From the IMG/VR virus record IMGVR_UViG_2703718858_000001, positions 1 to 39,617 of that record: a stretch of DNA of 39,617 nucleotides; one strand, 5' to 3'. Shown here piece by piece: positions 5,513 through 34,482 of the stretch; position 1 is the first letter of the stretch, and each line of letters begins with the position of its first letter. Under the pieces are notes generated by a model, which was given only the letters and a program-made list of their open reading frames with translations, searched no databases and was not told the DNA's origin. This stretch comes from a virus (lineage: Duplodnaviria > Heunggongvirae > Uroviricota > Caudoviricetes). The translations under genes and the position numbers were made by a program.

Positions 5513-5533
5513 TTATTGCATGGAGAAGATAAG

Positions 5534-5797: not shown

Positions 5798-5822
5798 AGG
5801 CCGCAAGAGCGGCCTATCGTTT
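5798..5822. terminator. Hairpin terminator between convergent genes
   Basis: AGGCCGC-AAGA-GCGGCCT stem-loop followed by T-rich tract. Confidence 0.5.
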
Positions 5823-6783: not shown

Positions 6784-6939
6784 ATGCGTTAAGCACAGCT
6801 ATATCCGAATTATGGTGGGCTGGGCAGGGGTCCGAAAGGACACCGGTACCACTTAGGCCGGCACGCCAACCTTGTCCAGTTCACCACCAGTAATTGGCGT
6901 TGCGGTGGTGATTAAAATCACTAAGTGGAGATAACCACC

Positions 6940-7650
6940 ATGGCTAATGCTCAAACTGCCATCTTCAAATTTGAATCTGTTAACCCTATCCGTTCCATCA
7001 TTATCGATGGCCAACCATGGTTTGTAGCCCAAGACGTTTGTAGTGCGCTGCGTATCCAAAACGTCACCCAAGCACTTGAAAAACTGGATGATGATGAAAG
7101 GTCTATGTTCAACATAGGGCATGAACATCGTGCAATTTTTGACAGCCGAGTAAAAGAGATCAACATCATCTCCGAGTCAGGCCTCTACACACTGATCCTC
7201 CGCTGCCGCGACGCAGTGACACCAGGCACTATCCCCTACCGCTTTCGTAAATGGGTTACAGGTGAGGTTCTTCCTCAGATCCGCCGCACCGGAAGTTACA
7301 TTAAAAACTCGCTCCCGCAGGAAGAACGCATAAAGATGGTTGCCGACCAGGTTGCAAACGCCACAGCATCAGCAGTGATGCAGGCGATGAAGATAGAGAA
7401 CAAAACCTACAGTGCCCCGCTGAAGCCCGGCTACCGCAGCCTGATTCATTCGCCGTCTGGTGTTCTCGGCCTGACGGAGAACTCACTGCTGATGAATTTG
7501 CTGAACCAGTTACAGGAAGACGGGCATGACGTATCGGGCGCAGCGGCGGAACTGACCACCATGTTCTGCTACATCGTCGGTGTGAGCAAATGCCTGCGTG
7601 ATATCCAGACGCACGCGGAGTACATCAACGACAAAGCAGGGTTCTTCTGA
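6940..7650 (+). CDS. Antirepressor, Bro-N domain protein with C-terminal domain shared with 5534-5791
   Basis: N-terminus FKFESVNPIRSIIIDGQPWFVAQDV...GLYTLILRCRD...FRKWVTGEVLPQIRRTGSY matches Bro-N pattern; ATG 6940 preferred over GTG 6925. Confidence 0.75.
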   Translation: MANAQTAIFKFESVNPIRSIIIDGQPWFVAQDVCSALRIQNVTQALEKLDDDERSMFNIGHEHRAIFDSRVKEINIISESGLYTLILRCRDAVTPGTIPYRFRKWVTGEVLPQIRRTGSYIKNSLPQEERIKMVADQVANATASAVMQAMKIENKTYSAPLKPGYRSLIHSPSGVLGLTENSLLMNLLNQLQEDGHDVSGAAAELTTMFCYIVGVSKCLRDIQTHAEYINDKAGFF

Positions 7651-11653: not shown

Positions 11654-11658
11654 TTAAT

Positions 11659-15971: not shown

Positions 15972-16516
15972 TATAATCCTCCGGGTAATCTGGTTCCTGC
16001 TGCTGCCCCGATTGGTGCAGGAGTGCTTTGAGTAAACGGACTCCACGTCCCACCAAACATCTGGTACGCACCGTATGCCTTCAGAGGCGCAGTGAGCAAT
16101 GTTGTTGCTGCTCCCACATTCCCCTGTTTACGGGCTGAACTGGCTTCTGCTTTATAGTTGGCAGCCTGAACCTGATAACCGTAAGCCTCGCGTTGCGCGT
16201 TATTCACCGTCGTCAGCGAATCAAGAGCGCCAAACTGGGCAGTGTCGCCAAATATATCCAGCGCGTTACCTGTAGATAAATCAGCGCCGGTAGCCCCCAT
16301 TGTCGCCGCCTGTGTACCAAGCCGCTGTCGGGTCTCTCTGCGTCGTTGCTCAGCTTCAGCGTTACCTCTGTTTATTGCATCATTTGCCTGAGCTGTGGCT
16401 ATATCTGCGTTCGCTTCTGCAACCTTCGAGGCATACTTTCCCTGTTGGTACTGGGTGTATGCCTGAATGCCACTCATGGCGAGCATTGCGCCACCAGCAA
16501 TAACCGGATCGCACAT
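15971..16516 (-). CDS. Internal virion protein (gp14-like position)
   Basis: 181 aa; translationally coupled. Confidence 0.45.
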   Translation of the reverse strand: MCDPVIAGGAMLAMSGIQAYTQYQQGKYASKVAEANADIATAQANDAINRGNAEAEQRRRETRQRLGTQAATMGATGADLSTGNALDIFGDTAQFGALDSLTTVNNAQREAYGYQVQAANYKAEASSARKQGNVGAATTLLTAPLKAYGAYQMFGGTWSPFTQSTPAPIGAAAGTRLPGGL

Positions 16517-16980
16517 TATTTTCTCTCCATGTGAAATCTGTGGAAATTAAGACCAAGAGCACCATAAGGCGCGGCTTCTTCAAGCCTGAATCCAAGCCAG
16601 TGCAGCCATGCTTTGGCAACATGGTTTCGCTCGTCGACATAGTTTTCCAGGCGCGGATAAACTGCCAGCATCTGCTGCAATACAGGGCGGCAGTGGCGAA
16701 GAAATGTCTTCTGATATTTTTCGATACGGCTGGTTCCGACCAGCCAGGGCGTACCATTGCCACCGATCATTGACGCCGGAGATACGCCAAACATGGTTAC
16801 CAGTTCTCCGTTCGCGAACCCTGACCAGGCCATAGTCGCAGTGCGAAGACCAACGCGCAGCGCATCTTCGGTAGTCATCAGCGATACCGCATACAGTTCG
16901 TCAATATCAGCCTGACGAACATCCGGCAAAATCATCTCAAGATGCTCTTCGGTAGCGGGAATAATTTGAACATCGATCAT
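16516..16980 (-). CDS. Virion-associated protein (gp13-like position)
   Basis: 154 aa; ATGA overlap both sides. Confidence 0.45.
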   Translation of the reverse strand: MIDVQIIPATEEHLEMILPDVRQADIDELYAVSLMTTEDALRVGLRTATMAWSGFANGELVTMFGVSPASMIGGNGTPWLVGTSRIEKYQKTFLRHCRPVLQQMLAVYPRLENYVDERNHVAKAWLHWLGFRLEEAAPYGALGLNFHRFHMERK

Positions 16981-19445
16981 CAGAATCCCCCAACAGTAAG
17001 GCGAGGAATAACGGCAAGAACAGACAGCGGCAACGGGTCAAGCTGACGGATTTTTACACGCCCGTTTTTGCCCCAGTTACTGTCCAGTTTCACTTCTACT
17101 TTTCCGGTAGCATCATCAACAGGATCATCGTAGAACTCGAATTCACGCTGTGGATATTCGTACCATTTACCGCCGGGCGTAGTCGCCCAGATGCCGCGAC
17201 TGGCATTCACAACCAGAGTAACGGAGGGGATCACCTGTTTTTTGTCCAGCAGCGTTTCCTGTCCGTTAATGTTGATATCCAGTGTTTCGAATTCAGCAGT
17301 TATTGGCAGGCCGATGTGCACTACAGCCCCCGGAGATTCCAGCGTGACGGCACCTCCGGAAACCACTTTCTGTGGTTCCACGTTCGCATCAGAGAGAATG
17401 TTTACGGTCTGGTCTTCAAGATGAGACAGGCCTCCAAATGTCCGGCGCGCCATCTGCCAGTTCGTGGTGGCCACATTCCTGAGGGATGGCGGGACGTTCC
17501 TGTTAGCACGAACCACTACAGCGGTATTGCTGGTTACAGAAATAATGTCGCAACGTAATTCTTTTGACACCTCATCGCCAGGATCAGTTCCGGTATAAGG
17601 GAACTGTAGTTGCGCGCCGACATCACTACTGGTGAAGTACGCACCACCAGAAACACTGATTGTATATTCCGCACGGTAATCCCATTCACCAGAACCACCA
17701 GTGATGGTCATCGTTCTGTCAGACGTATTTCTTCCATCATAGCTAAGGCCAGAATCAACAAAGAAAGCATCTTCATCGCTGGTAAATAAACGGCTGGACA
17801 GTCGCTCTATGTATCTCACTGTTTGCCCGTTAACGGTTCGGTTAACGACGAAATACACCGCATCTTCATTGCCTTCGCTGATACTGCATGTGCTTTCATA
17901 TTTTCCGGTACTGGATTGTGGTGCCCATGCAAAAACCTGCTGATCACGCAAATAGGTCATCACCAGTAATTTACCGTCATCACGAATGCAGAAGGCGCTG
18001 GAGTAAGGGACAATCGAGAAGCACCAGTCAACAATGCTGTGCTTCTGAAAAAGATGATTGGCAAGGATGGTCAGGTCGTTCCCCTGATAGCCGTCAACAT
18101 CGAATGAGTAGGCCAGATCACGGACAACACTGCCTTTCTCCTGGACGAACAGAGCAATATTCGCCACGGCAATTGGTGGGACATTGCTCGAGCCATTTGA
18201 TCCCTGAGAGCTGAATGCAAATGATGATGGGGTAAGCACTTTGTTCTGGTCGCCAGTGATGACGTACTCACCTCCGGAAGTCAGCGCCACCAGCGAACCA
18301 ACATCAATCAGGTGACGGATCTCATTAACCTGACGCCCGGCATAGGTGTAGATAATTCTGTCGTCATCCTGCGTAGGATTGCTTTTGCCAAAATCCTTAT
18401 AATCCCCGGTACGGCTGGCCCAGATAGTCTGAGGGAACGCAGTCGATGCGGCGAAGTAAAGGCGTTGTTGATAATAAACAACAGTGCCAGGATAACCGTT
18501 AATACTGTTCCAGGCATATTTAGCCCATTTATAGCTGGCATTATCCTCGCCAACTACCTGCGAAGGGATATAGGAAATCACCTCGGCAGTTGCAGTAGTT
18601 CCATTTGCAGCAGAGATACGGGCAATGCCAAAACCACTGTGCAGATACTCCCACTCAATGCCGGTATCATCATCACCGGATCCGCCCCAGCCATCCCATG
18701 ATGTGCCTTCTGTATGCGAAGGGCGCAAAGTGCCTGTTTTGCCTGCTGTAACGGCGCGATAGTAGTTACTGTCTGCACGGCGAATATCGCCAATCGACGT
18801 ACTCTTACTGGTTTCCCATACCGGCACTGAATCCACTGCAGGCTGTTCCAGATAGAACAATTTGCCTACCTGCTCCGCGCCAAAAATAGAGGCGCTTGCC
18901 GTTAACGTAATTGTCCCGGTGCTGGCGCTGGCATAAACCGTCACTGACTCGTCAATATTGATATCTTCAAATGGCCCGTTCTTCGTTACCACATCAACCA
19001 GTTGCCAGTTGTCATGAGCATATCGGCGCAACTCTTTCGGCGGGTATGCCGGGTGAACCAGCGTAAGCACGTCGGCGCTTTGCGTGAATTTAATTCGGAA
19101 CAGATCGGCTTCAGTATATGGCGTGGCAATTTCATAAATAACATTGCTGCTGTTCAGCACCAACGCACCATCTTTGATAACGCGCATGTACTGGTGTCCG
19201 AACTCCAGAGCATAGGTCTGAACCGTCGAGAACTGGAACGGGATCAGGCGGCATTTCCGATTTGGGTATTTGGCGGCACCGACAAAACGCGTACCAGGTC
19301 GATTCTCAACGCCGCCATACTGCCGCACGATAAAGTTATCGCACTTGCGCAATGCTACCTGGTACTTCGCCATGTCAATACGCCCGTACAACGACGGTCC
19401 AATCTCACCACCGGCAAAGCTGGGCTGGATCCAACTGATAGCCAT
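16980..19445 (-). CDS. Tail tubular protein B-like (nozzle)
   Basis: 821 aa versus T7 gp12 794 aa; position after gp11-like gene. Confidence 0.5.
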   Translation of the reverse strand: MAISWIQPSFAGGEIGPSLYGRIDMAKYQVALRKCDNFIVRQYGGVENRPGTRFVGAAKYPNRKCRLIPFQFSTVQTYALEFGHQYMRVIKDGALVLNSSNVIYEIATPYTEADLFRIKFTQSADVLTLVHPAYPPKELRRYAHDNWQLVDVVTKNGPFEDINIDESVTVYASASTGTITLTASASIFGAEQVGKLFYLEQPAVDSVPVWETSKSTSIGDIRRADSNYYRAVTAGKTGTLRPSHTEGTSWDGWGGSGDDDTGIEWEYLHSGFGIARISAANGTTATAEVISYIPSQVVGEDNASYKWAKYAWNSINGYPGTVVYYQQRLYFAASTAFPQTIWASRTGDYKDFGKSNPTQDDDRIIYTYAGRQVNEIRHLIDVGSLVALTSGGEYVITGDQNKVLTPSSFAFSSQGSNGSSNVPPIAVANIALFVQEKGSVVRDLAYSFDVDGYQGNDLTILANHLFQKHSIVDWCFSIVPYSSAFCIRDDGKLLVMTYLRDQQVFAWAPQSSTGKYESTCSISEGNEDAVYFVVNRTVNGQTVRYIERLSSRLFTSDEDAFFVDSGLSYDGRNTSDRTMTITGGSGEWDYRAEYTISVSGGAYFTSSDVGAQLQFPYTGTDPGDEVSKELRCDIISVTSNTAVVVRANRNVPPSLRNVATTNWQMARRTFGGLSHLEDQTVNILSDANVEPQKVVSGGAVTLESPGAVVHIGLPITAEFETLDININGQETLLDKKQVIPSVTLVVNASRGIWATTPGGKWYEYPQREFEFYDDPVDDATGKVEVKLDSNWGKNGRVKIRQLDPLPLSVLAVIPRLTVGGF

Positions 19446-20769: not shown

Positions 20770-21207
20770 TTAACCAGTTACTTTTGAGCGGATCGGATAC
20801 GGCGTATTGGCATCAACATCAAGACTGATACCAGCAGTGAATTCGCCAGCCGTTAGTGGGCCAGTTGCGACGGAGTAGTTAACACGCAGATATCGCTGAA
20901 CACCGGCAGGCACCTTTGCAGAAACAACTCGTTTACCTGCTGTCAGGGCGGTCTTTGCCAGTGCACCACTATCATAAATAGTGGTCCATGAGCTGTTATT
21001 CTCACTCGTCTGCAACTGGATGTTTACAGTTGCCTCACCACTTGCCGTGGCGGCTTCGTTAACCAGCGCCCAAAACTCAAGCGGGTAACCCACGCCGATA
21101 TCACGACGTTTTCCGTCAATTGGACCGAGATCGATTACGTCAGTAGAAGCCGCGGTATTCGTAACCGCCTGAGCTTCGGAGAACATCAACAGTTTGTCGG
21201 TGATCAT
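20770..21207 (-). CDS. Capsid-associated protein (decoration candidate)
   Basis: Immediately downstream of major capsid gene; GGAGAA SD. Confidence 0.45.
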   Translation of the reverse strand: MITDKLLMFSEAQAVTNTAASTDVIDLGPIDGKRRDIGVGYPLEFWALVNEAATASGEATVNIQLQTSENNSSWTTIYDSGALAKTALTAGKRVVSAKVPAGVQRYLRVNYSVATGPLTAGEFTAGISLDVDANTPYPIRSKVTG

Positions 21208-21258
21208 CTTCTTTCTCCATTAGTGGGTCTGTTACGACCCACAGGTTAATAACAGGCG

Positions 21259-22251
21259 TTACACCACGCGGGCTTCTGTTTCCAGAAGCGCATCAGTTTC
21301 ACGGATTGGTACACCACGGAATGAAGTCCACCACTCGCCTTCAGTCTCTTTTACGCTGATAGCCAGAGATGTTTTCTCCAGAGATTGCAGATCAAGAGCC
21401 TGGCCTACAGTGCGGTTCATGTAGAACACCGGGCGGCCCATTCCACGGTTTGGAATGCGATGCAGTGCTTTAACCATCAACTTCGCAATATTTGCGGCAG
21501 AGGAAGGTTCTGAAAGATTGCTGACATCGATGTTTGCAATGCGAACAACATAACGCCAGTCACGCAGAGCAAGTCCGTTGTCCCATTTGTAATGGGTGCG
21601 ATAGCCTTCGTACTTGCCGCCATTAGCATCTTCCAGTGTCACCTGGCCTTTATCTTCCATCTGGATGCCAGCCTTCTGCCCTTTCGGGAAGATGCCATGC
21701 ACGGTGTTTTCGCCCCACACCACTAACCAGATTGAGGTGTTATCTGTACCCGTGCCACCAGCATCAATGATGTTCTGAGCATTACCCGCAGACAGGCTGG
21801 AATAGCGGGAGGACAGTCCCATAAACTGCTGAGGGTTAACGCTGGAATCACCATAAAACAGCGTCTGCGCCATCTGCTGATTCATCGCTTCAATAAATGC
21901 GCGGTCTTCAGACAGGCGGAATTCAGCGGTATTGCCGTTCAGATCAGCCAGTGACTTATCGACTTCAGCATAGGTTTCCAGCATGCCAACGGAATCGGTG
22001 ACCTGCACCGTGGTTGATTTGCTTGGCTGTACGCCATAGTTCAGCAAACGCCAGGTAGCTGAAGGTAAACCAGAACGAATGGTGGTTCGGTGTCCGGTAG
22101 GAAGGTTCCCTTCGACAAAAGGCATATCCTGAAGGATCGGGTTAGTTTGACCGAGAAGCTCGATAATCTTATCGACTTTCCCGTTTGGATCGACGCGCTT
22201 ACCCCAGTCAGCCAGCGTTAGCGCAGTTAAGCCTTTAACAGCCATTGTCAT
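21259..22251 (-). CDS. Major capsid protein
   Basis: 330 aa after an acidic scaffold gene and portal; start may be the second in-frame ATG at 22245. Confidence 0.7.
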   Translation of the reverse strand: MTMAVKGLTALTLADWGKRVDPNGKVDKIIELLGQTNPILQDMPFVEGNLPTGHRTTIRSGLPSATWRLLNYGVQPSKSTTVQVTDSVGMLETYAEVDKSLADLNGNTAEFRLSEDRAFIEAMNQQMAQTLFYGDSSVNPQQFMGLSSRYSSLSAGNAQNIIDAGGTGTDNTSIWLVVWGENTVHGIFPKGQKAGIQMEDKGQVTLEDANGGKYEGYRTHYKWDNGLALRDWRYVVRIANIDVSNLSEPSSAANIAKLMVKALHRIPNRGMGRPVFYMNRTVGQALDLQSLEKTSLAISVKETEGEWWTSFRGVPIRETDALLETEARVV

Positions 22252-22259
22252 TTCCTCTC

Positions 22260-22955
22260 TTATTTGCCATAGAGCACTTCGGCCGCACTACGCTGGCCTT
22301 CATTACCACCGGTGACCATGCCATCCTCAGACATCGCCTTTCCGATTTTCACGAACGTTTTGACCAGATCAGGGTGATTACCCAGTCCGGTGGTGTTCAG
22401 ATATTCTTTGAGTTCAGGTGTCCCGAACTGGTCAAGCGCACGCTGTGCGGCGCTGAGGTTAGAAATTAACTTGTCGCCACCGATTTCTTTGTCAGCTTTT
22501 ACATCAGCAGCCCACTGCTCGGTTGTTTTCTGCCAGGCTTCTGCCTGGCGCTGCTGCACACCTGCCAGAATCTTTGGATAAGCATCAACCAGCTTTTGCG
22601 CTTGCTCGTTGGTCAGGTTAAGTTCTCGCGCCACCGGCTCGAATTCCTTCAACGCTTCTGTATCCAGCTCTACGCCTTCGGCAGCCTGAAACTCGTACTT
22701 CTCAGGCGCACCCTCTGGTTTATCGCCGTCCTTTTTTTCATCCTGCTTATCGTTTTCAGGCTTTTTGTCATCAGCAGGTTTATCGCCATCAGCAACAGGT
22801 TGTGGCTTATCACCTTCCGGTTGTGATGGATCGCCAACTGGAGCAGGGTTATCACCTGCAGACGCTGACGGCTCTGACGCAGCCGGAGCTGCTCCACCAT
22901 CGACTGGTTGCTCATTGCAAAGACGGAGATACAGCAAACGCTCAAATAAATTCAT
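22260..22955 (-). CDS. Scaffolding protein
   Basis: Acidic Pro/Asp/Lys-rich low-complexity protein between portal and capsid; ATG 22955 with AGGAG SD. Confidence 0.6.
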   Translation of the reverse strand: MNLFERLLYLRLCNEQPVDGGAAPAASEPSASAGDNPAPVGDPSQPEGDKPQPVADGDKPADDKKPENDKQDEKKDGDKPEGAPEKYEFQAAEGVELDTEALKEFEPVARELNLTNEQAQKLVDAYPKILAGVQQRQAEAWQKTTEQWAADVKADKEIGGDKLISNLSAAQRALDQFGTPELKEYLNTTGLGNHPDLVKTFVKIGKAMSEDGMVTGGNEGQRSAAEVLYGK

Positions 22956-22957
22956 GA

Positions 22958-23254
22958 TCACTCCTGTTCACTGGCCTCTTTGGCCATCTTCAAATACTGT
23001 TCAGGGCAATGCGCCATAACGCGCTGAAACAGTTCCAGCGCCAGATTGCGTTGCCCCTCATTAAATGCCATTGCCATAGCGTCCATCGGCGAGATAGCGG
23101 AAAACACACGACCTTTCTCCAGCACCGACCAGACAACGCGACGCCCCTGTTCACTGCTCATGACAAAGCGAATGTCATCAATTTCACGCTGTGCCATGTC
23201 ACGTTGCTTACGGGCGTTTTCTTCTTTCAGTTGATCATCTTCGTAATCTGTCAT
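22958..23254 (-). CDS. Hypothetical head-module protein
   Basis: 98 aa, ATGA-coupled to portal. Confidence 0.45.
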   Translation of the reverse strand: MTDYEDDQLKEENARKQRDMAQREIDDIRFVMSSEQGRRVVWSVLEKGRVFSAISPMDAMAMAFNEGQRNLALELFQRVMAHCPEQYLKMAKEASEQE

Positions 23255-24930
23255 TGTGATTGCCCACCCTGACCACTAACTGCATTCGCCATAGCTGACA
23301 AAACACTCGGATCAGAAGTTTTAGCTTCGCTTAGCGTCTTGGCACCCTGTGCCGCCGCCATCCCCATCGCCATCATTTGTTGCTGCTGTTGCTGCTGTGC
23401 CCGTTGCTGGCGAGTCTGCTCAACCTGTTCCTGCGGAACAATGACGGTTGGAGACACTCCGGACATATCAGCGAATGCATCGATCGCCTGATCAACGTTG
23501 AGTTTGTCGAGAGCTTCTGGTTTCGCTTGCGCAAGTTGACCAATGAAGTTGACCGTGGATGCCAGACTGGACAGGCCGATAGACTTCTGCGCCTGAGCCA
23601 TGACGGAAATGTATTCGACCTTCAGGGGCATACCTTCCATCGCGTCAGGCGGTGGCGGCAGCATGTTTTTACGCACCATCATCGAGAAAGCGCGGTCAAT
23701 GAGAGGATTAAGACATTCGTCGTTCAGACGCTCCAGAACCGGCCCCAACATCAGAAGTTTTTCTTCTTTCATTTCGATCACCGCTTCCACAGGCATCGAG
23801 CGGGTATTGATGTTCTGCAACATCATGAACAGATCGACAAAGTAGGCGCTGTTAATGATTTGACGAGTGTCCTGAATGTCTGCCACCAAATCTGCTGTAC
23901 TGGGGTTAACCAGATAAGCAGGCCTGAAACCATCCTGACCAGTAATCTGATCGATATACGTGATGTCGCCAGGAAGAAGGGAGGCGCGCTGATTCTTGAG
24001 GGAAGTCGGAGCAACCATCGGCGGATTGGTGGCTTTATCAATCAACTGCGACTTGCGCTTCTGGAGAAGCTGCAATGCCTTAACAGGTCCAAGCGCCAGC
24101 ATACCCGGGCATGATGATCCATAAACATCTTCGCCGTTAACTTCCCAGCGCGGAGCCATAATTGGAAACTCATCGAATCCGGACTCACGCAACAACCTGT
24201 CGTTATCGCCACCAACCTCGTAATAAACCGATTTGAATGGCTTGTTCTTGCTATCCAGCTTCGATGTATCGCGGTCAATGTTCGGGTAAACCGAATGCAT
24301 CACTTCAATCCACTTCTCGTAGGTGCCGCTTTCCCACATGCTTTTTACGGATTCGCTGACGTTATTTAGCCCGAACTCCTGAACAAGCTGACGAACAGTC
24401 ATAGAGAACTTGCGAAAACAGGTGTCCACACTGCCACGAGGTGAGTTAGCCAGGTAGTAACTGCCTATCGGGAATGGCATTGTGCGAATGATGTCCTCGT
24501 CATCCTCCAGCACCGCCATTGCACCAGTGCTGTATGTGCCGAGGCTTCCGTATAACTGCGGAAGAGACTGGTAGAGATTCGACTTATTGAACATATCGTT
24601 CATGCGGTTCTGCACCGCCTCAAGCCACAACTTAACAGGGCCATAATCCATCATTTCAGGATCTGGCGTAGCCAGGCGAAACCACGGACGCGCGGGGCTT
24701 GTGATGCCTGACATCATGCCGCTGGCGAGAGTGCGCGCCGCCATAGTCCCGGTCGAATCAATAATGCGTGTATTGCGTCGATCGTTACGGTTGACCTCAG
24801 AAGTCAGAAAGCGGGAACCACGCGGGTTGATGTAATCACTCAACTCGCGCCAGTGCGGCTCGAACGACTGACGCTCGCTTTCAAGTTGTGCGAACTGTTT
24901 GTTCAATCGCTCTTTAGTTGTTTCCGCCAT
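23251..24930 (-). CDS. Portal (head-to-tail connector), podovirus type
   Basis: 559 aa; Gln/Ala/Met-rich C-terminal tail resembling T7 gp8; lies after the terminase genes (separated by the tRNA/gp49 island). Confidence 0.7.
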   Translation of the reverse strand: MAETTKERLNKQFAQLESERQSFEPHWRELSDYINPRGSRFLTSEVNRNDRRNTRIIDSTGTMAARTLASGMMSGITSPARPWFRLATPDPEMMDYGPVKLWLEAVQNRMNDMFNKSNLYQSLPQLYGSLGTYSTGAMAVLEDDEDIIRTMPFPIGSYYLANSPRGSVDTCFRKFSMTVRQLVQEFGLNNVSESVKSMWESGTYEKWIEVMHSVYPNIDRDTSKLDSKNKPFKSVYYEVGGDNDRLLRESGFDEFPIMAPRWEVNGEDVYGSSCPGMLALGPVKALQLLQKRKSQLIDKATNPPMVAPTSLKNQRASLLPGDITYIDQITGQDGFRPAYLVNPSTADLVADIQDTRQIINSAYFVDLFMMLQNINTRSMPVEAVIEMKEEKLLMLGPVLERLNDECLNPLIDRAFSMMVRKNMLPPPPDAMEGMPLKVEYISVMAQAQKSIGLSSLASTVNFIGQLAQAKPEALDKLNVDQAIDAFADMSGVSPTVIVPQEQVEQTRQQRAQQQQQQQMMAMGMAAAQGAKTLSEAKTSDPSVLSAMANAVSGQGGQSQ

Positions 24931-24944
24931 TTCAATGACTCCGG

Positions 24945-25151
24945 TTACTGACCAAGCAGCGTTTTACCGCTGGTATTAGCGGTTGATGTGTCGCCCTGAG
25001 AACCGGTAAGCAGCGTAGAACTACGACCAGCAGCAGCGCGACGGCGACGTGTTTCTTCGTCGCGGGCATCAACAACGGCGGCATCCTGCTCCTGTGGTGC
25101 TGCCTGAACTTCTGGTGTTGCAGGCACTGATGGTGAGCTACCCATGCACAT
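24945..25151 (-). CDS. Hypothetical small protein, first gene of head operon
   Basis: GGAG SD 8 nt upstream; preferred over overlapping ORF 24932-25171. Confidence 0.4.
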   Translation of the reverse strand: MCMGSSPSVPATPEVQAAPQEQDAAVVDARDEETRRRRAAAGRSSTLLTGSQGDTSTANTSGKTLLGQ

Positions 25152-25240
25152 ATCAATGACTCCGTACGCAATTAAATTATTACCAATTTAACCACATATG
25201 ATTTATTTATCGTAGATAGTTGACATTTAACGCACAAATT

Positions 25241-25257
25241 ATTACCTTTCAGGTAAC
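25241..25257. promoter_or_regulatory. Operator ATTACC-TTTCA-GGTAAC upstream of head operon
   Basis: Same palindrome family; TTGACA hexamer at 25220-25225 nearby. Confidence 0.5.
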
Positions 25258-25578
25258 TAAAGAGTTCATTCCGGTTACTAACCTGACTGGCTTGTCGTTA
25301 AATTGAACAGGTGGAGTGAGCTTTTGTTTTGAGCAGTACGGCGTATGGCACATGCGCCGATAGCGGTCTGGATACGTTTAAGGGGCACCCTCCCTTGCTC
25401 GGGCAAACGAACCAGGTAGCTGGAATGTGCAAGTCGAGCGGTTTTATTCCGCGCACGGGGATTCACCATCCCGGCGATTCGGTGTGACGCCTCGGAAGAG
25501 ACGAGGGTACAACGATGAGAGCATTTATGGAGCCGCGACAAAGTGTGGCGCCTTAACAGGCTAAGTGCTCTCAGCGTT

Positions 25579-25655
25579 GTGGCATTAGCTCAGTTGGACA
25601 GAGCAACCGCCTTCTAAGCGGTTGGTCGCAGGTTCGAATCCTGCATGCCACGCCA
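25579..25655 (+). tRNA. tRNA-Arg (anticodon UCU), phage-encoded
   Basis: Perfect 7-bp acceptor stem GTGGCAT/ATGCCAC, U8, D-arm GCTC..GAGC with GG, anticodon stem ACCGC/GCGGT, loop CTTCTAA, T-arm GCAGG-TTCGAAT-CCTGC, discriminator G and CCA. Confidence 0.9.
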
Positions 25656-25698
25656 GAATCACGCCTAAGGACCGTGATGCCAGAAGTTCCAGGTGCTT

Positions 25699-25740
25699 GG
25701 CGGTGATGGTTTCCCTTGAAGGACTATCACCGCCCTTTTT
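25699..25740 (+). terminator. Rho-independent terminator after tRNA
   Basis: 9-bp stem GGCGGTGAT/ATCACCGCC followed by CTTTTT. Confidence 0.6.
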
Positions 25741-25770
25741 ACAGCAGGGCGCCATTGCGATGACTTCATG

Positions 25771-25786
25771 CTGTAAACCAGTACAG
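25771..25786 (+). promoter_or_regulatory. LexA-box-like CTGTAAACCAGTACAG
   Basis: CTGT-N8-ACAG; core less AT-rich than consensus. Confidence 0.3.
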
Positions 25787-25818
25787 CCACGGAAGGCATA
25801 ACTCATTGCTTCCAGTTC

Positions 25819-25842
25819 GCCCGGTTCGCCGGGCATTTTTTT
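25819..25842 (+). terminator. Rho-independent terminator immediately upstream of gp49-like gene
   Basis: GCCCGG-TTCG-CCGGGC followed by A-TTTTTTT, directly abutting the AAGGTGAG SD. Confidence 0.7.
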
Positions 25843-25853
25843 AAGGTGAGATT

Positions 25854-26210
25854 ATGAACGACCAGCAAATCGAAAAAGAAATCGTTGAGAAAGGCAAAAC
25901 GGCACCGCGAGTTACGCCCCAATATATCGAAAGCATCATTCTTGAAGAGCATTTCTTTACTGCTTATGACGGTATTCGTGCCGCCAATATGGGCATTGGC
26001 GATGCGTGGACAGCGCATAAATCTACAGACCTCCTTACTTTCTGCGTACTGGTGCTGAAGAATGGCTTCACCGTCACCGGAGAGAGCGCCTGTGCAAGCC
26101 CGGAAAACTTTGATGCAGAAATTGGTCGGAAGATTGCCCGGCAGAATGCTGTAAACAAAATCTGGATGCTCGAAGGTTACTTGCTGAAGCAGAAGCTAAG
26201 CGAGCAATAA
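25854..26210 (+). CDS. Phage Gp49/Sf6-gp66-like family protein (tentative), function unknown
   Basis: 118 aa; strong SD AAGGTGAG; motif FTVTGESACASPENFD.EIG.KIA..NA..KIW. Confidence 0.55.
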   Translation: MNDQQIEKEIVEKGKTAPRVTPQYIESIILEEHFFTAYDGIRAANMGIGDAWTAHKSTDLLTFCVLVLKNGFTVTGESACASPENFDAEIGRKIARQNAVNKIWMLEGYLLKQKLSEQ

Positions 26211-26300
26211 CACCGTGACATGTCACAAACAGCCAGCCGATGAGCTGGCTTTGTTTTATCCTCATCAGAGGATATCAACGACATTATCCCCACCAGCGGA

Positions 26301-27776
26301 TTAAGCATACGGGTCATAATCTGTAATGGCCTTGCCTTGCTGGTTCTGCTGCCCAGGAATTCGCAGACGCTTCGACACAGGGAAAGCAAACGTCAGCAGT
26401 AGCGCATCGCCTTTACCCGGCGAACGCCCAAGTCGTTCTTTGATATCTTCCTTCGGTTCGATAACGATTTTACCGTCCACGCGAACTTTGTACTCTGCCG
26501 CCGACAGATCGTCCGCTGTTTCCTGGTCATCCAGCATCCCGCCCAACCTCAGCCATGTCTTGCATGAGTTGAACATCTCCCCGCGCTTGTTGAGCATCTG
26601 AGGGTCAGTTGACGCACCACCGAACGGAACAAGTTGCCATGTGCGCCCCCAGCCGTCACCGATTGACTTCAGACCGGTTCCGTAACCGAAGTCGATGAAC
26701 ACCGCGTCAGCCTGATACTGGTCTTCAAAGTCAGCGATACGCTTCGCCATAATCAGATCGTCAGTGGTCTTGTTGCCAGTCCATAGCACCTTACTATGCA
26801 ACCCCTGCCGCAGGTATATCACCGCGTCATCAACGCCTGAATATGCCGGGTCAACACCGATTATCACCGGAACATGTGCCACCTGCGCAGCGGTTACCAC
26901 CCGTTTCATTGCCTCATCAGTAAGACCGGTAGGGATAAACTGCAATTCAGATGCATCAGGGAATATGCCGCGCACACGGATTTTAACGAAGTCGCTGTCT
27001 TCCCCGTAGTCATCAACCCATTTCTGCAACTGCTGTTTGTTAGTGCCTTCCACCGTCCGGCTGTCAATCTGCGCAGTTTTCCAGCGGTGTTTATATTTGC
27101 GGAAACATTCGCGGAAACGTCCGGTATTACGCGTCGGGTTCCCGAACGCCACCCAGATGATTTCGGTGTCTTCGTCCGTCAGCGCACCCTCTGCTACCTC
27201 CCACACCAGATCCGCAATGTTCGACGCTTCATCGAATACCACGATGATGCGTTTGCGCTCGTTGTGTAGTCCGGCGAATGCCTCAGTGTTGTGCTCAGAC
27301 CAGGGGATTGCGTCAGCTCGCCACCGCTTGTCGTGCCCAGGGTCATTGCTGTACATCGCGGTAGCGGTACAGGTAAACCAGTCTTTCGTGATAGCAAGGT
27401 TCGACCACTTGATAATTTCCGGCCAGGTCTTCGTTCGTAGCTGGTTGTCGGTGTTGGCGGTCACCACGACCTTACAATCCTCGCAAGTGGACATGCCCCA
27501 GTTGATCAGCATTGAGATAAATGCGGATTTACCAATACCGTGGCCCGAAGCACGTGCCAGCATAAGCGGCTGATAGCGCGTCTCGGGATTCTGCAGGTGA
27601 TCACGTATCTCTCGGAACGCATCGGCCTGCCACTGACGTGGGCCGGTAGCATGTGCCAGTTCAGTCCCCTCTTCCCCCCACGGGAACGCATAGAGGGCAT
27701 AGCCAAGCGGATCGTGAGTGAACCCTGCAATATCCTCGATCAACTGCTCTTCAGGAGATAACGCTGCATCTGTCAC
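26301..27776 (-). CDS. Terminase large subunit
   Basis: Walker A GHGIGKS; 491 aa; GTG start overlapping small-terminase stop. Confidence 0.85.
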   Translation of the reverse strand: MTDAALSPEEQLIEDIAGFTHDPLGYALYAFPWGEEGTELAHATGPRQWQADAFREIRDHLQNPETRYQPLMLARASGHGIGKSAFISMLINWGMSTCEDCKVVVTANTDNQLRTKTWPEIIKWSNLAITKDWFTCTATAMYSNDPGHDKRWRADAIPWSEHNTEAFAGLHNERKRIIVVFDEASNIADLVWEVAEGALTDEDTEIIWVAFGNPTRNTGRFRECFRKYKHRWKTAQIDSRTVEGTNKQQLQKWVDDYGEDSDFVKIRVRGIFPDASELQFIPTGLTDEAMKRVVTAAQVAHVPVIIGVDPAYSGVDDAVIYLRQGLHSKVLWTGNKTTDDLIMAKRIADFEDQYQADAVFIDFGYGTGLKSIGDGWGRTWQLVPFGGASTDPQMLNKRGEMFNSCKTWLRLGGMLDDQETADDLSAAEYKVRVDGKIVIEPKEDIKERLGRSPGKGDALLLTFAFPVSKRLRIPGQQNQQGKAITDYDPYA

Positions 27777-28369
27777 TGATTGCCATCCTGACGTTCTTTG
27801 AGTCGCTTCCTGGCTGCTGCTATGCGATCAGCAATTGTCACATTCACATTAACATCCAGGCGTTCTTTGAATGCGTTGACGTCGACGTGCTTACCAATCA
27901 GTTCGAGGTTCTTCACCTTGTCAGGCCATTTAATTTTTTTGAGGATTGTCTCTATCGAATCCTCGTTCATGTTCATGATGGTCGATGACAGATCAAAGCC
28001 GCTAAGCGTAGTGCGCCAGATTTTCGGCCACTCGCGGATTGGCTTAAGGCTCCCATCGTCGTTGAGGATATCAATCACGTCCATCTGGTCGATCTCCACC
28101 AGGCGCATGAGAACGTAATCAGCACTGACGCGCATTCGTTTGTTGCGCTCCTCCATCAACTCGGCAATCCGTTTTTGAATGCGTTCATCGCGCATCATGA
28201 CACTGGCTTTAACTGCCGCTGTATTTGGGGAGAATCCTGCATTAATCGCTGCCTGAGTCTGGTTTTCAGGCGTTTTGATGTATGACTGGCAATAAGCCTC
28301 CTGCATTGCTGTTAGTGGCTTAAATTGCGTTGATTTGCGTTTATAGGTTTTAGGTTCAGCAGGCATCAT
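27773..28369 (-). CDS. Terminase small subunit
   Basis: Directly upstream of TerL; ATG 28369 chosen over TTG 28447. Confidence 0.65.
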   Translation of the reverse strand: MMPAEPKTYKRKSTQFKPLTAMQEAYCQSYIKTPENQTQAAINAGFSPNTAAVKASVMMRDERIQKRIAELMEERNKRMRVSADYVLMRLVEIDQMDVIDILNDDGSLKPIREWPKIWRTTLSGFDLSSTIMNMNEDSIETILKKIKWPDKVKNLELIGKHVDVNAFKERLDVNVNVTIADRIAAARKRLKERQDGNQ

Positions 28370-28376
28370 AACCACC

Positions 28377-28409
28377 GTGGTAATAGTTACCGTTGTGGTA
28401 ATAGTACCA
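28377..28409. repeat. Tandem 15-bp repeats GTGGTAATAGTTACC / GTGGTAATAGTACCA upstream of terminase
   Basis: Two direct copies 18 bp apart, each containing GGTAA-N3-TTACC (operator half-sites in opposite arrangement). Confidence 0.5.
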
Positions 28410-28412
28410 TGC

Positions 28413-28438
28413 AAAATAAAGCCGCCATAGTTGGCGGC
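28413..28438 (-). terminator. Terminator between early-right operon and packaging genes
   Basis: GCCGCC-ATAGTT-GGCGGC hairpin with T-rich tract on minus strand. Confidence 0.5.
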
Positions 28439-28443
28439 AGTAT

Positions 28444-28656
28444 TCAAAGTCCATCAAATTCATCGTAAAAACTCTCGTCAAGATACCCTTCCCATTTACC
28501 GCGAATGAAAATCACATCCTCGCCGCAAGGGTGCTGACTGTCGATAACTATATCCCTCCTGGCGCAACCATACTTATGCATGAGAAATTTAACCTCTTTC
28601 GGAAAATTTGCTGAGTTATCTCTCATATCTTCAAGGTCGTAGCGTATTTTTGGCAT
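28444..28656 (-). CDS. Hypothetical protein
   Basis: ATG 28656 with GAAGGTG SD. Confidence 0.45.
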   Translation of the reverse strand: MPKIRYDLEDMRDNSANFPKEVKFLMHKYGCARRDIVIDSQHPCGEDVIFIRGKWEGYLDESFYDEFDGL

Positions 28657-28673: not shown

Positions 28674-29012
28674 TCACACTATTAATTTCGTTTCATGCCA
28701 GCCTTTAGTCACCCAGCATTGCGAGTCACCATTACACGGGCATGAATTAACGGGAACTCTCTCGCCGCACTTACCGCAACGTTTTCTGCTAATCGATTTT
28801 ATACGCCCGCGCACGCGTGCATCATCCTGGCGGATCAGTAACGCTATATACTCACCAAATTCGTAAGGCGCACGCCCGGGGCGACGCGCGGCACAGTTAC
28901 GCTCAAGCATTTCAATTTCCTGAGCATCAAGCACAATCTCCAGCTTACGCACACCAGATGCAGCTTGTCTGGCTCTCTGAGCGGCTTTGCGCTCTGCTGC
29001 TGATTTAGCCAT
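28674..29012 (-). CDS. Hypothetical protein with C-terminal Cys-cluster (zinc-ribbon-like)
   Basis: CGKCGERVPVNSCPCNGDSQCW; AGGAA SD; last gene before packaging genes. Confidence 0.5.
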   Translation of the reverse strand: MAKSAAERKAAQRARQAASGVRKLEIVLDAQEIEMLERNCAARRPGRAPYEFGEYIALLIRQDDARVRGRIKSISRKRCGKCGERVPVNSCPCNGDSQCWVTKGWHETKLIV

Positions 29013-31547: not shown

Positions 31548-32333
31548 TTACTTGATAAATCCTGCCGCCTTTCCCCGCCTGTATTCCTCCATCAGCCACT
31601 GCGCCGGTGTTATTCCCCCCAGGGTAGCGGCGTTAGGCATACACCCGAAACTTCGCCCTGGTGGATGGTAAACGTCTCTCCCTGTGTCCGGAGGCGTACT
31701 CATGGGTTCTGGCTTTGCCTGTATGCTGATCACCGGATCGGGTATCTGCTGTCCGAAAGCCACCTTTTTCGCCCAATCATCAAGCAGCCTGCGCGCGTGT
31801 TTCTCAACCTCAATCTCGCTAAGCTGGCGCTGATACATTGCACGGCGGGTATCACATACGACCCAGTACATAACCGGATGCCGCCACGGGAATCTTTCGG
31901 GACCACCAGGATATAAACTTTTTTCCTTGCTGTACCGGTGAAACTCCGCCATCACATCGTCAATGGTGACGCCAAGAACCATCTTGCTGTCTTTGCACCA
32001 CTTGATAAATTGCCCTGGCGACGGCCAGAACGGAGATTCACTGGCGCGGGCGTGGCGCATACCAGCAGAAACCTGTTCACGGGTTCGGATCCCACCTTCG
32101 GCAAACGCAGCAATCCACTGCTGTTTTGCAGCAACTTCCTGCTCTGGCGTCTTCAGGTTGGTTACCACTGCCGCCGGAAACAGCTGTTTCAGCTGTTTGA
32201 AAAGGGCATCAACAAGCCTCTCTGCTGACATGTTCACCACATTGTCATTGTTGACGTACTGATGCTCATAACCTGACATGCGAGAAAGGGCTTCTCCGTC
32301 ACGGTTTTGTATCGCGGTAAAAACGTTGTTCAC
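31548..32333 (-). CDS. Replication protein P-like (helicase loader)
   Basis: GIRTREQVSAGMRHARASESPFWPSPGQFIKWCK parallels lambda P ...GITTMEQVNAGMRVARRQNRPFLPSPGQFVAWCR; GTG 32333 with GGGAGGA SD overlapping O stop. Confidence 0.8.
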   Translation of the reverse strand: MNNVFTAIQNRDGEALSRMSGYEHQYVNNDNVVNMSAERLVDALFKQLKQLFPAAVVTNLKTPEQEVAAKQQWIAAFAEGGIRTREQVSAGMRHARASESPFWPSPGQFIKWCKDSKMVLGVTIDDVMAEFHRYSKEKSLYPGGPERFPWRHPVMYWVVCDTRRAMYQRQLSEIEVEKHARRLLDDWAKKVAFGQQIPDPVISIQAKPEPMSTPPDTGRDVYHPPGRSFGCMPNAATLGGITPAQWLMEEYRRGKAAGFIK

Positions 32334-33145
32334 AAGAAATCCTCCCACGCTTCAGGGCTGTTCCAGTGCGGAACGTTGTTATCAGGTAATGTTGATTGCT
32401 TCTGTCTGCTAATCTGCAGCCGCCTTGCTAGCTTCTGCTCCCACTGTGCCTGATGGTATGCCTTACCCTCAGCCATCCAGTAAATTCTGAACTCTGCAAG
32501 TTCCTGTGCCGTTGGCAGACTGTCCAGGTAGATCCCCTGCAATGAGCTTTTCCGAAGAAAGTCATCTGATGGCTGCCATTGTTCATGCATGACAAATTTG
32601 CCTAATTGCCCTGGCCCACCAGGAGGAACAAAGTTATTCATCACGGCGTTGTTTGCGCCGGGGTCATGATGCACAGAATCCCCGTTTTTTGTCCTGCTCT
32701 CCCTCTCTTGGTTAAATGACTGGTTATATGACTGGTTCTGGATCCCGTTTTTGGGATCATTCAACATCCCGTTTTTGGGATCATTCAACATCCCGTTTTT
32801 GGGTATATTCCCGTTTTCGGTAACATTACCGTTTTCGGGTTCATTGCCCCCCTCCCGGTTGCCTTTAATGTTCCCGTTTTTGGTTATATTAAGAGAGAAA
32901 ACCCGCACTCTTTTTGTCGCTCCCTTTCTCTCTCCGGTATCTGAAATAAGCCCCATTTTCATGAGCGATATAAGCCCGGCCTGCACGGTTTTTTTATTCA
33001 GGCAAGTGTCTTTAACGAGGCGTTCTATGCTGGGGTAGCAGAGGTTATATTCATCGGCTCTGTCAGCCATCGAGAGCAGTATGAGCTTTAATGATGAGCT
33101 ACCTGGATCTGTCTCCCAGGCCCAATCTGTTGCATGTCTGCTCAT
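32330..33145 (-). CDS. Replication initiator (O-like) containing origin iterons
   Basis: Precedes P-like gene; internal direct repeats encode NG..PKNG repeats; GGAGA SD. Confidence 0.65.
   Translation of the reverse strand: MSRHATDWAWETDPGSSSLKLILLSMADRADEYNLCYPSIERLVKDTCLNKKTVQAGLISLMKMGLISDTGERKGATKRVRVFSLNITKNGNIKGNREGGNEPENGNVTENGNIPKNGMLNDPKNGMLNDPKNGIQNQSYNQSFNQERESRTKNGDSVHHDPGANNAVMNNFVPPGGPGQLGKFVMHEQWQPSDDFLRKSSLQGIYLDSLPTAQELAEFRIYWMAEGKAYHQAQWEQKLARRLQISRQKQSTLPDNNVPHWNSPEAWEDFL
32742..32890. repeat. Iteron array (at least 6 copies of CCCGTTTT(T/C)GG, about 24-bp period); putative ori
   Basis: Three near-identical 24-bp units ATCCCGTTTTTGGGATCATTCAAC at 32742, 32766, 32790 plus degenerate copies. 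Confidence 0.6.
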
Positions 33146-33512: not shown

Positions 33513-33743
33513 TCATGAGTAGAAGAAGTATGCCAGTTCTGCTTTTGAGCGCAGCCATTGTCTTGTTTTACAGGCTTTAAAAAGCCCATTCATCAATACT
33601 TTACCTGGCATTTTGCGCTTACCTGTTAAGTGAGTCTGGATATAGTGACTCGTCGTTCCGGCTTCCTGCGCGAAGGCTTCACGCTCATCCGGAGTGAGTG
33701 CAAGCCAGTGCTTTTTGAAATCGAAATGTCCGTTATCGCTCAT
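33513..33743 (-). CDS. Cro-like HTH regulator
   Basis: 76 aa, divergent from repressor across operator cluster. Confidence 0.6.
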   Translation of the reverse strand: MSDNGHFDFKKHWLALTPDEREAFAQEAGTTSHYIQTHLTGKRKMPGKVLMNGLFKACKTRQWLRSKAELAYFFYS

Positions 33744-33897: not shown

Positions 33898-34482
33898 ATG
33901 AAAAGTATCCAGGACGTCCGCAGGCAAAATCTCAACGACTTGATCGACCGTGAATTCAATGGTGTTCAGACGCGGATGGCAGAAAAACTTGGAACTCAGG
34001 CAAATCTGGTAAACCGCTGGGCTCTTGGCAAGAAGGTTATCGGCGACCAGGTTGCGCGAAAAATTGAAGCTGCCGCCAATAAACCCCGTAACTGGCTTGA
34101 TATCGATCGCTCGCTTTCTCAGGAAGGTTTTCAGCCTGTCGGCCCAAGCGACATTGGTCAGCTGGCGGCTCACAACCTGGAACGCTGGATGAGCGAAAGC
34201 CGCGACCTTTCAACACAGGGAAAACTTCACCGCGCATCCGGCGTCGCCCAGGTGACAATCAGCCGCCTGTTAAACAATGAGGTCAGCGTTTCCATTTCCA
34301 CCCTGGAGAATGTTGCATCCGCATTCGGGCGTCACGGATATGAACTACTGATTCACCCGCACGACCCTGCGACTATCAACTATGACCGCTCGCGCTACGC
34401 ATTGTTACCCGAAACCGAGAAAGCAAAGATCGAAAGTTACATTGAATTTGTCATCAACCAGAACGAAAAAAACAAACAATAA
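33898..34482 (+). CDS. Immunity repressor, tandem HTH, no S24 autocleavage domain
   Basis: Two HTH-like segments; no Ser-Lys peptidase motifs; flanked by operator clusters and followed by terminator. Confidence 0.7.
   Translation: MKSIQDVRRQNLNDLIDREFNGVQTRMAEKLGTQANLVNRWALGKKVIGDQVARKIEAAANKPRNWLDIDRSLSQEGFQPVGPSDIGQLAAHNLERWMSESRDLSTQGKLHRASGVAQVTISRLLNNEVSVSISTLENVASAFGRHGYELLIHPHDPATINYDRSRYALLPETEKAKIESYIEFVINQNEKNKQ

Follow-up and report, generated by a model that had tools for sequence, protein, structure and literature searches.

The DNA analysed here, called the window, is the whole 39,617-nucleotide (nt) stretch of the IMG/VR virus record IMGVR_UViG_2703718858_000001 (positions 1 to 39,617; Caudoviricetes). 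The subject is a small unit on its + strand that carries a tRNA-Arg(UCU) gene, an apparent spacer and, behind two intrinsic terminators, an open reading frame (ORF) of the Gp49/Acb4 family. The 430-nt "spacer" between a gp3-like gene and the tRNA is, as judged from covariation among related copies, a conserved, double-pseudoknotted RNA (25338-25572), and this RNA is undescribed, lying outside both Rfam and the genome annotation. The arrangement suggests, with about even confidence, a single rightward, early, repressor-controlled operon for stable RNAs, in which the terminators T1 and T2 would attenuate transcription and minority read-through would give an Acb4-type sponge protein. The unit runs from an operator-overlapped candidate promoter (25220-25256) through a leader of about 80 nt into the RNA, the tRNA, T1, T2, a Shine-Dalgarno (SD) sequence with the acb4-family gene, and a third terminator, T3:

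25220-25248, + strand: candidate early promoter TTGACA-17-TACCTT (-35 at 25220-25225, -10 at 25243-25248, predicted start near 25255)
25242-25256, no strand assigned: palindrome TTACC-N5-GGTAA (TTACC-TTTCA-GGTAA), overlapping the -10 and the predicted start; presumed repressor operator
25338-25526, + strand: core of the RNA, helices P1-P6 and two pseudoknots, from covariance model R1
25517-25572, + strand: 3' domain of the RNA, with closing helix GAGAGCAUUU (25517-25526) pairing with AAGUGCUCUC (25563-25572) and two small hairpins inside, from a minimum-free-energy fold
25579-25655, + strand: tRNA-Arg(UCU), 77 nt, CCA encoded, called by ARAGORN and Rfam
25658-25678, + strand: conserved tRNA 3'-trailer hairpin AUCACG-N9-CGUGAU
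25699-25742, + strand: T1, a 14-bp stem (25699-25734) followed by CTTTTTAC (tail CUUUUUAC)
25771-25786, no strand assigned: CTGT-N8-ACAG string, judged a chance match
25819-25842, + strand: T2, GCCCGG-UUCG-CCGGGC (25819-25834) followed by A and U7, with the SD directly adjoining
25843-25849 and 25854-26210, + strand: SD AAGGTGA and the 118-aa ORF, PF13876 (Acb4 family)
26231-26258, + strand: T3, AGCCAGC-N6-GCUGGCU followed by UUGUUUUAUC, after the cargo gene

The core of the RNA scores 154.8 bits (E=7.5e-45) against covariance model R1 and contains the invariant blocks GGCACAUG, AGCGGUC, GGUAGCYGGAAUGUGCAAG, CACCA and GGCGAU..GGUGUGAC as well as the loop GAAGAGA. Twenty-five diverse copies, aligned with MAFFT, served to place the structure, which comprises seven helices, two of them pseudoknots. 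Its 35 pairs are 94.5% paired and 16 of them change on both sides, a result reached in none of 500 shuffles, while slid partners pair at only 28-41%. The clearest covariation is found in P1 (8-20, G-C/A-U), P2 (34-91), P5 (138-150 and 140-148), P6 (173-183) and the pseudoknot pair 143-163, which is C-G or A-U in a ratio of 75:20 with no exception among 95 sequences. The other pseudoknot, formed between GCAC in the P1 loop and GUGC, is invariant and so carries no proof by covariation. G.U pairs at columns 6-22, 9-19, 32-93 and 137-151 set the + strand as the RNA strand. A long-range pairing proposed by RNAalifold (22-24 with 98-100) was rejected in favor of the local P1 hairpin, which has the G-C to A-U covariation. 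The 3' domain is joined to the tRNA by the 6-nt linker AGCGUU, and its closing helix is kept with compensatory changes around differing inserts in SPN9TCW, cdtI, L043, L015, L084 and L045, as assessed by eye with no formal count.

No Rfam family matches the RNA at E<=1 in 24900-26400 or at E<=10 in 25250-25580, the GOLLD and ROOL models included, and an Rfam scan of the related loci returned only tRNA, C4 and isrK, all elsewhere in those loci. The invariant strings of the RNA found only chance matches, in C. elegans papers, among open-access articles, and no description of the RNA turned up in the open-access literature on put-like RNAs and on GOLLD and ROOL. The svsR sRNA of a lambdoid prophage was considered and is a different element, located within the 3' end of cI. 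Public records do carry probably spurious antisense ORFs over the tRNA or the RNA or just downstream, namely PhiV10p04 (L001 2186-2437), mEp460_037 (L138 2943-3311) and orf40 of cdtI (L009 2782-3237).

The RNA is widespread. It is present in 1839 of 5426 complete E. coli genomes, and none of 40 listed records annotates anything on it. Searches by blastn with 25300-25580 place it between trnI and ban in P1, P7, D6, SJ46 and RCS47 and just downstream of cI in cdtI and mEp460, and also find it in Stx2c phages and phages of Klebsiella, Enterobacter and Stenotrophomonas. Exact matching of the invariant 19-mer picked out more than 120 viral contigs, among which 102 cores are distinct, and copies confirmed by the covariance model occur in genomes of 23 Enterobacterales species from at least 12 genera. 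Matches to the 19-mer in Bacteroidota, Gemmatimonadota and Oscillospiraceae were set aside as chance, since about nine are expected in 596 Gb and none fits the covariance model. Representative copies lie at L008 2501-2696 (P1), L009 2501-2688 (cdtI) and L132 3501-3688, with further copies in L012-L131 and L139-L166. The copy in epsilon15 is shortened (32 bits), and an "RNaseIII" site annotated on the opposite strand (L010 2434-2533) overlaps its start. K-12 CPS-53, which has yfdPQR, contains no copy.

The tRNA is a frequent but not constant neighbor: 48 of 129 copies abut a tRNA, co-directionally in all 48, and the other 81 have no true tRNA alongside. In tRNA-less copies a variable domain closed by GUUGUGG...CCACAAC takes its place (L009 2741-2860; L045, L017, L026, L067). 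ARAGORN calls no tRNA on this domain in L009, and none is reported near the motif in L017, L026 and L045; the domain is possibly a tRNA mimic recognized by RNase P or a decayed tRNA. A T1-type terminator follows the RNA and the tRNA or tRNA-like domain in most lineages, and terminator-like sites after the RNA lie on its strand in 82 of 113 loci versus 33 on the other strand. Every lineage inspected has a strong promoter, accompanied by operator-like repeats, 30-110 nt upstream of the RNA. In cdtI the order is cI, a terminator, the promoter TTGACA-16-CATAAT (11/12; L009 2421-2448), the RNA, a T1-like terminator (L009 2865-2912) and yfdP/Q/R-like genes; the RNA starts 45 nt after the predicted transcription start, and the T1-like terminator follows at the same distance as in the window. 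In cdtI, mEp460 and O104:H4-type lambdoid prophages (L009, L132, L138) the RNA thus has a strong PL-like promoter before it and a strong terminator after it. No N gene was found in the stretch of their early-left operons inspected, and the first early-left ORF of cdtI has no arginine-rich (N-like) motif.

Within the window, the candidate promoter lies about 330 nt upstream of the tRNA and was read by eye. An automated σ70 scan of 24900-26400 found no site: the -10 TACCTT agrees at only 3 of 6 positions (T1, A2, T6), so 25220-25248 was passed over. The form TTGAC(A/C)-17-TACCTT nevertheless recurs in 23 of 24 distinct tRNA-Arg-bearing relatives, with a spacer of varying sequence. The palindrome TTACC-N5-GGTAA occurs in the window in 10 exact and 15 one-mismatch copies versus 0.69 expected (0/100 shuffles), the exact copies starting at 5443, 6563, 6656, 25242, 28387, 31434, 31496, 33828, 34540 and 34602. 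The copies cluster around the repressor-like (33898-34482) and cro-like (33513-33743) genes and in other early intergenic regions, the epsilon15 record annotates the homologous site as "repressor, lysogeny", and the palindrome at the start of the unit is kept in 24 of 24 relatives. From the position of the operator and the motif statistics we infer that 25220-25248 is an early, repressor-controlled promoter.

The tRNA had been proposed as a canonical tRNA-Arg(UCU), and tRNA models agree: Rfam RF00005 scores it at 73.3 bits versus a gathering cut-off of 29 (E=9e-16), and ARAGORN makes the same call with anticodon TCT. It is about 82% identical to argU of K-12; the T arm and anticodon loop are the same, as is the D arm save for one base of the D loop, and in the alignment the substitutions in the acceptor and anticodon stems fall at paired positions and leave complementarity fully intact. 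Recognition by arginyl-tRNA synthetase depends on the identity elements A20, C35, U36 and G/A73. The phage tRNA has A20, C35, U36, the discriminator G73, GGA at 18-20 and an encoded CCA, and it is credible as a working tRNA because these elements, the CCA and the stem complementarity are kept. The trailer hairpin at 25658-25678 is invariant between E. coli and Salmonella relatives save for one loop position and is retained in the tRNA-less L045. In a crude set of 52 ORFs the phage uses AGA at 6.6 and AGG at 5.1 per 1000 codons, compared with about 2 and 1.2 in E. coli K-12, and thus 3-4 times as often. A comparison of AGA/AGG use in late genes had been suggested, and it gave a divided answer: use is raised in the ORF set as a whole and the codons are dense in the tail/injection genes (9179-19445) and early genes (1297-1680, 5814-6542 and 32330-33145, the last with 9 of its 14 arginine codons being AGA or AGG), but they are near zero in the capsid, scaffold and portal genes (20770-24930) and in the terminase genes. 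A codon-supply role is plausible, not compelling. The tRNA resembles other phage rare-codon tRNAs and host argU in that it is a tRNA-Arg(UCU), complete and with its CCA encoded, whose genome makes elevated use of AGA/AGG; it differs in being joined to a 235-nt structured RNA in one predicted transcript and in lying on the opposite strand within the structural-gene block, where the highly expressed head genes avoid these codons.

Downstream of the tRNA, the expectation of two intrinsic terminators, the second abutting the SD, is borne out by fold energies and by conservation on the + strand. T1 folds at -22.8 kcal/mol (z=-6.5), T2 at -12.7 and T3 at -12.1 kcal/mol, and all three combine a GC-rich hairpin with a U run on the + strand only, the pairing of T1 and T2 being kept by compensatory change. 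The T1-type element, with a GGCGGU...ACCGCC base and a covarying distal stem followed by (C)UUUUUACA, can be found 3' of the RNA in Uetakevirus, in the cdtI type and in further lineages. Among the 24 distinct relatives that bear the tRNA-Arg, 23 have T2, with a T run after it every time and the compensatory variants GCCCAC/GUGGGC, GCCCGA/CGGGC and GCCUGG/CCGGGC; on the - strand its hairpin is followed by GAACUGG, so that the termination signal points in the + direction only. T3 is annotated in the phiV10 record as a terminator on the other strand. The region 24900-26400 holds five terminator-like sites versus 1.7 +/- 0.9 in shuffles. No promoter between T1 and T2 was found by the scan, nor any TAnnnT hexamer by eye before the SD in 25656-25853, and a promoter at this place was therefore rejected. 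The original prediction had allowed expression of the gene either by read-through or from an inter-terminator promoter; read-through is the only route now visible, and acb4 is probably expressed in this way because no promoter lies between the terminators. E. coli and Salmonella relatives alike keep the segment CAGCAGGGCGCCATTGCGATGACTTCATGCTGTAAACC (25740-25779) between T1 and T2, which contains no recognizable signal.

The gene behind T2 had been called Gp49/gp66-like, and its 118-aa product matches Pfam PF13876 (Phage_gp49_66) over the full profile (1-82/82) with 118.6 bits versus a cut-off of 27 (E=1.7e-34), so that by profile match it is a member of the Acb4 family. PF13876, formerly the "N4 Gp49 / Sf6 gene 66 family", has been equated with Acb4 (10.1101/2024.12.30.630793) and is used as the Acb4 family in a second preprint (10.1101/2025.07.12.664507). 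Chang et al. show that Acb4 of Bacillus phage SPO1 is a tetrameric sponge for 3'3'-cGAMP that blocks the cyclic oligonucleotide-based antiphage signaling system (CBASS), and that 8 of 8 tested homologues bound 3'3'-cGAMP, those from phages of Gram-negative hosts also binding cAA (10.1101/2024.12.30.630793). By analogy we infer that the 118-aa protein would sequester 3'3'-cGAMP and related CBASS signals. Its sole match in the PDB by phmmer is 9e4w, "anti-CBASS 4 (Acb4)", a weak hit (E=0.006) over 43 residues (61-103 to 38-80). The ENF-x2-EIGR segment aligns with 9e4w and the SPO1 ligand contacts F48, F62 and I66 are kept, K36 and K81 of SPO1 Acb4 lying outside the 43-residue alignment. To these likenesses are added the full-length family match and the small size and accessory position of the protein; the differences are its length (118 aa versus 96, with a longer N-terminal part), three changed contact residues, and the location of the predicted sponge gene, which follows two terminators and is outside any late or early protein operon.

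Comparison with relatives indicates that the position behind T2 is a cargo slot. Homology continues across the tRNA, T1 and T2 and is lost at the SD/ATG: Salmonella SPN1S-type phages match up to 25849, and the match to Sf6 gene 66 (82% DNA identity from the start codon on) starts at 25851. In phiv142-3 the cargo is deleted to an 8-codon stub with T2, the SD and T3 retained. Over the 24 distinct loci with this tRNA, two classes of cargo can be told apart. The first shares the junction T2-TAAGGTGA-N3-5-ATG and includes Acb4, a Tad2-like protein, a 140-aa family and a 138-aa protein, TAGAGAGGAAATCATG replacing the SD form before the Tad2-like gene. The Tad2-like gene (PF11195, E=4e-26), of the anti-Thoeris sponge kind, occupies the slot behind T2 in Uetakevirus-type L084, L095 and L106 and follows the same upstream RNA in P1-type plasmids (L044, L067, L104, L113). 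A 107-aa family and an RdgC-like gene are also seen in the cargo position. The second class encodes membrane proteins of 201-282 aa (phrog_4780) with a fresh TTACC-N5-GGTAA right after T2 (L007, L012, L031, L116, L124, L131), whereas the promoterless Acb4 class has no operator palindrome after T2. The second class is read as bringing its own operator-controlled promoter, and T2 would therefore really stop most transcription. On this sequence evidence, the slot is an exchange point enriched for counter-defense genes, a defined hot-spot in which unrelated sponges (Acb4, Tad2-like) are swapped exactly at the terminator-SD-ATG junction and a place to mine for further such genes.

The name "moron" had been given to the cargo gene. 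A moron, in the definition of Juhala and Hendrix, consists of a promoter, a gene and a terminator inserted between conserved genes. The cargo fits in having content and presence that vary among close collinear relatives, a sharp boundary at the start codon and its own terminator T3, but the Acb4 class lacks its own promoter and has instead a conserved upstream terminator and a shared SD; the second cargo class appears to be promoter-bearing.

These features are compatible with the following working of the unit. In a lysogen, repressor bound at TTACC-N5-GGTAA would hold the unit off, and the promoter would fire early on infection or induction. Most transcripts would stop at T1 or T2, and RNase P cleavage at the 5' end of the tRNA would free the structured RNA and the tRNA as the main products. 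The tRNA would decode AGA/AGG, mainly for tail and early genes, where the codon counts are raised and the benefit is presumed. Some polymerases would pass both T1 and T2, and the cargo would then be translated from the conserved SD. The two terminators would act as attenuators, giving high levels of stable RNA and low levels of mRNA and shielding the convergent late operon; this role is suggested by the lack of a promoter after T1 and by an SD junction that stays conserved from one cargo type to the next. The cargo itself would be a homotetrameric Acb4-type sponge for 3'3'-cGAMP and related signals, in line with the binding seen for tested homologues, and the CTGT-N8-ACAG string would play no part.

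Several observations weigh against parts of the attenuated-operon model. The -10 of the promoter is weak (TAcctT), and the operator at 25242-25256 could equally or also serve a leftward promoter for gp3 and portal. Tandem strong terminators predict very little passive read-through, which is awkward for a sponge that needs abundance. The head genes, made in the largest amounts, hardly use AGA/AGG, and the codon argument is only moderate. As to ligand specificity, three SPO1 contacts are replaced in the phage protein (E49 by T73, Y57 by A81, T70 by I94), and a single-sequence AlphaFold2 model, all-helical with a pLDDT (predicted local distance difference test) score of 38, is unusable as a check of the fold. 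The promoterless cargo behind two conserved terminators thus poses a concrete question, namely how sponge proteins reach useful levels.

One possible answer, clearly less favored than simple attenuation, is that read-through is licensed by the RNA, which would act in cis like HK022 put or nucleate a Nus-type complex, so that polymerase passes T1 and T2 and cargo output is high. The RNA would then tentatively represent a new class of RNA-only, cis-acting transcription-licensing element, put-like in action and structurally unrelated; a bolder variant has its read-through activity respond to a ligand or an infection cue. Such a role is consistent with the placement of the RNA after a strong, operator-flanked early promoter in all lineages inspected, with its nutL/putL position in the N-less cdtI, mEp460 and O104:H4-type prophages, and with the excess of terminator-like sites after it on its own strand. 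A promoterless cargo behind two strong terminators would need help, a sponge needs abundance, the mEp phages were collected as Nus-dependent (PMC11893012), and the cdtI-type T1 tail CGCUCUUUUUACAA (CGCTCTTTTTACAA) resembles boxA as generally given. The likeness to HK022 putL and putR is one of position: lambdoid relatives without N have the RNA between the leftward early promoter, which it follows closely, and a terminator (the putL position), and in the window it also follows an operator-controlled candidate promoter. It is, however, about 2.5 times larger than put, with a core of 173 positions and two pseudoknots against a two-stem V of about 70 nt, is unrelated in sequence and occurs once per genome, with no copy in the rightward operon of lambdoid phages. 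Homology to put was rejected, as blastn gives no HK022 match and model R1 finds nothing in HK022 23-34 kb. Under constant antitermination, moreover, the conserved, covarying T1 and T2 would serve no purpose and transcripts would run on antisense into terL; copies of the P1 type lie mid-operon with no terminator after them; and the apparent operator and promoter of one cargo class imply that T2 is effective. If the RNA does license transcription, it would switch on early accessory and anti-defense genes (Acb4, Tad2-like) in epsilon15-like phages; it would do the same for the leftward early operon in lambdoid phages of the N-less SfV/cdtI/mEp460 type and for genes of P1-like plasmid prophages. 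Control of termination by the RNA would account for the way in which a large group of phages without N expresses its early genes.

A rather unlikely alternative, which treats codon supply as secondary and is compatible with the attenuated operon rather than exclusive of it, is that the tRNA and the RNA form an anti-defense payload, the tRNA replacing host tRNA-Arg cut by an anticodon nuclease and the RNA, once freed by RNase P, serving in trans as a decoy, sponge or scaffold. A tRNA whose acceptor and anticodon stems are recoded relative to argU, with the identity elements kept, would suit this purpose, as would the location of the unit in an anti-defense slot beside Acb4 and Tad2 sponges. The RNA is always co-directional with and abutting a tRNA or the GUUGUGG...CCACAAC helix, which would define an RNase P end, and the conserved T1 would give the RNA-tRNA transcript a defined 3' end. 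On the other side, no known E. coli defense nuclease for tRNA-Arg(UCU) was identified in this analysis, and most RNA copies (81 of 129) have no true tRNA alongside. GOLLD and ROOL, phage and prophage RNAs that are ornate, pseudoknotted, of unknown function and near or covalently linked to tRNAs, offer a precedent for tRNA-linked phage structured RNAs (PMC12286853). The RNA in the window is likewise phage-encoded and ornate, with two pseudoknots and a tRNA abutting over a third of its copies (48 of 129), but it has a much smaller core without a match to their Rfam models, lies at the 5' end of early operons and is limited, as far as seen, to Enterobacterales phages. An RNA acting in trans would join GOLLD and ROOL, but in a genetically tractable host. 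Far less probable than either of these explanations is that the unit is merely an RNA/tRNA gene ending at a double terminator, behind which genes land as at a neutral site. The two strong terminators, the missing promoter and the dispensability of the cargo (deleted in phiv142-3) would fit a silent passenger; at least 222 E. coli genomes, however, have the ORF intact with its SD, unrelated cargos share a conserved SD-ATG junction, and the cargos are enriched for known anti-defense families. The least probable reading is that of the original prediction, in which the cargo is a tightly gated moron switched by LexA and the SOS response through the CTGT-N8-ACAG string between the terminators. The string is present and fits minimal LexA half-sites, and the phage is SOS-connected elsewhere. 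As a LexA operator it fails, because it scores 8.6 bits, has no promoter within reach, has T2 downstream of it and has lost its ACAG half in Salmonella relatives and L084.

The details of the string support its dismissal. CTGT-N8-ACAG occurs three times in the window versus 0.63 expected, one of the three (5497) being a textbook box. On an approximate matrix built from 22 known E. coli SOS boxes, whose training sites score 15.7-27.8 bits, the 20-mer at 25769 ranks ninth in the window, with eight other sites scoring at least as high, and lies below the weakest training site, level with several random positions. The spacer of the string contains GC (AAACCAGT). SPN9TCW, L045 and L084, Salmonella relatives among them, have lost the ACAG half though the flanks are conserved, and the full string is found only in E. 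coli phages more than 95% identical. A LexA operator at 25771-25786 was accordingly rejected on count, matrix score, conservation and the lack of a promoter alongside, and SOS gating of the cargo gene, for which there would be no promoter to repress, is refuted as far as computation can go. A much better candidate lies elsewhere:

5495-5514: LexA box TACTGTATAAATATACAGTT, 26.9 bits, near-perfect

This box is located 20 nt before an 85-aa ORF (5534-5791, + strand, phrog_450) that shares an antirepressor-like C-terminal domain with the Ant-like protein encoded at 6925-7650, and box and ORF are probably the real SOS-induction module of the phage. LexA-controlled antirepressor modules are known from Tum of coliphage 186 and from the Gifsy antirepressors. 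The box before an antirepressor-like ORF resembles these systems, with the difference that it lies 20 kb from the tRNA/acb4 unit and is unrelated to it.

The wider interest of the locus lies in the RNA, which is carried by about one complete E. coli genome in three, by P1 and, in the early leader, by lambdoid phages without N, and which shows covariation of the kind seen in riboswitches and ribozymes. The unit as first described is real and largely already known: RefSeq labels "tRNA-Arg" and "Gp49 family protein" are present at the locus and in more than 200 E. coli prophages, and the family was tied to anti-CBASS sponges in 2024. Of the five elements in that description, the tRNA, T1, T2 and the ORF all hold at their positions, and the LexA-like element is present as a string that does not go beyond chance.

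By sequence, the window belongs to a temperate phage of the phiV10/epsilon15-like kind (Uetakevirus). Across 1.5 kb spanning the unit, identity by blastn is 96-98% to phiV10, the O157 typing phages 9 and 10, vB_EcoP_ZX5 and related Uetakevirus, the best identity to prophages in E. coli chromosomes reaches 98.9%, and at least 80% of the query is found in 222 complete E. coli genomes. The insertion of the unit on the opposite strand between terminase and portal, noted at the outset, is confirmed, with a gp3-like ORF also intervening on the portal side; the unit on the + strand is antiparallel to terL on one side and to the gp3-like ORF and portal on the other. The neighboring genes are:

23251-24930, - strand: portal, PF12236
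24945-25151, - strand: gp3-like 68-aa ORF, between the unit and portal
26301-27776, - strand: large terminase (terL)
27773-28447, - strand: small terminase, PF03592

Two genes upstream of the small terminase, a 112-aa "transcriptional regulator" of phrog_536 with a Cys-rich C-terminus (28674-29012, - strand) is a candidate late-gene activator.

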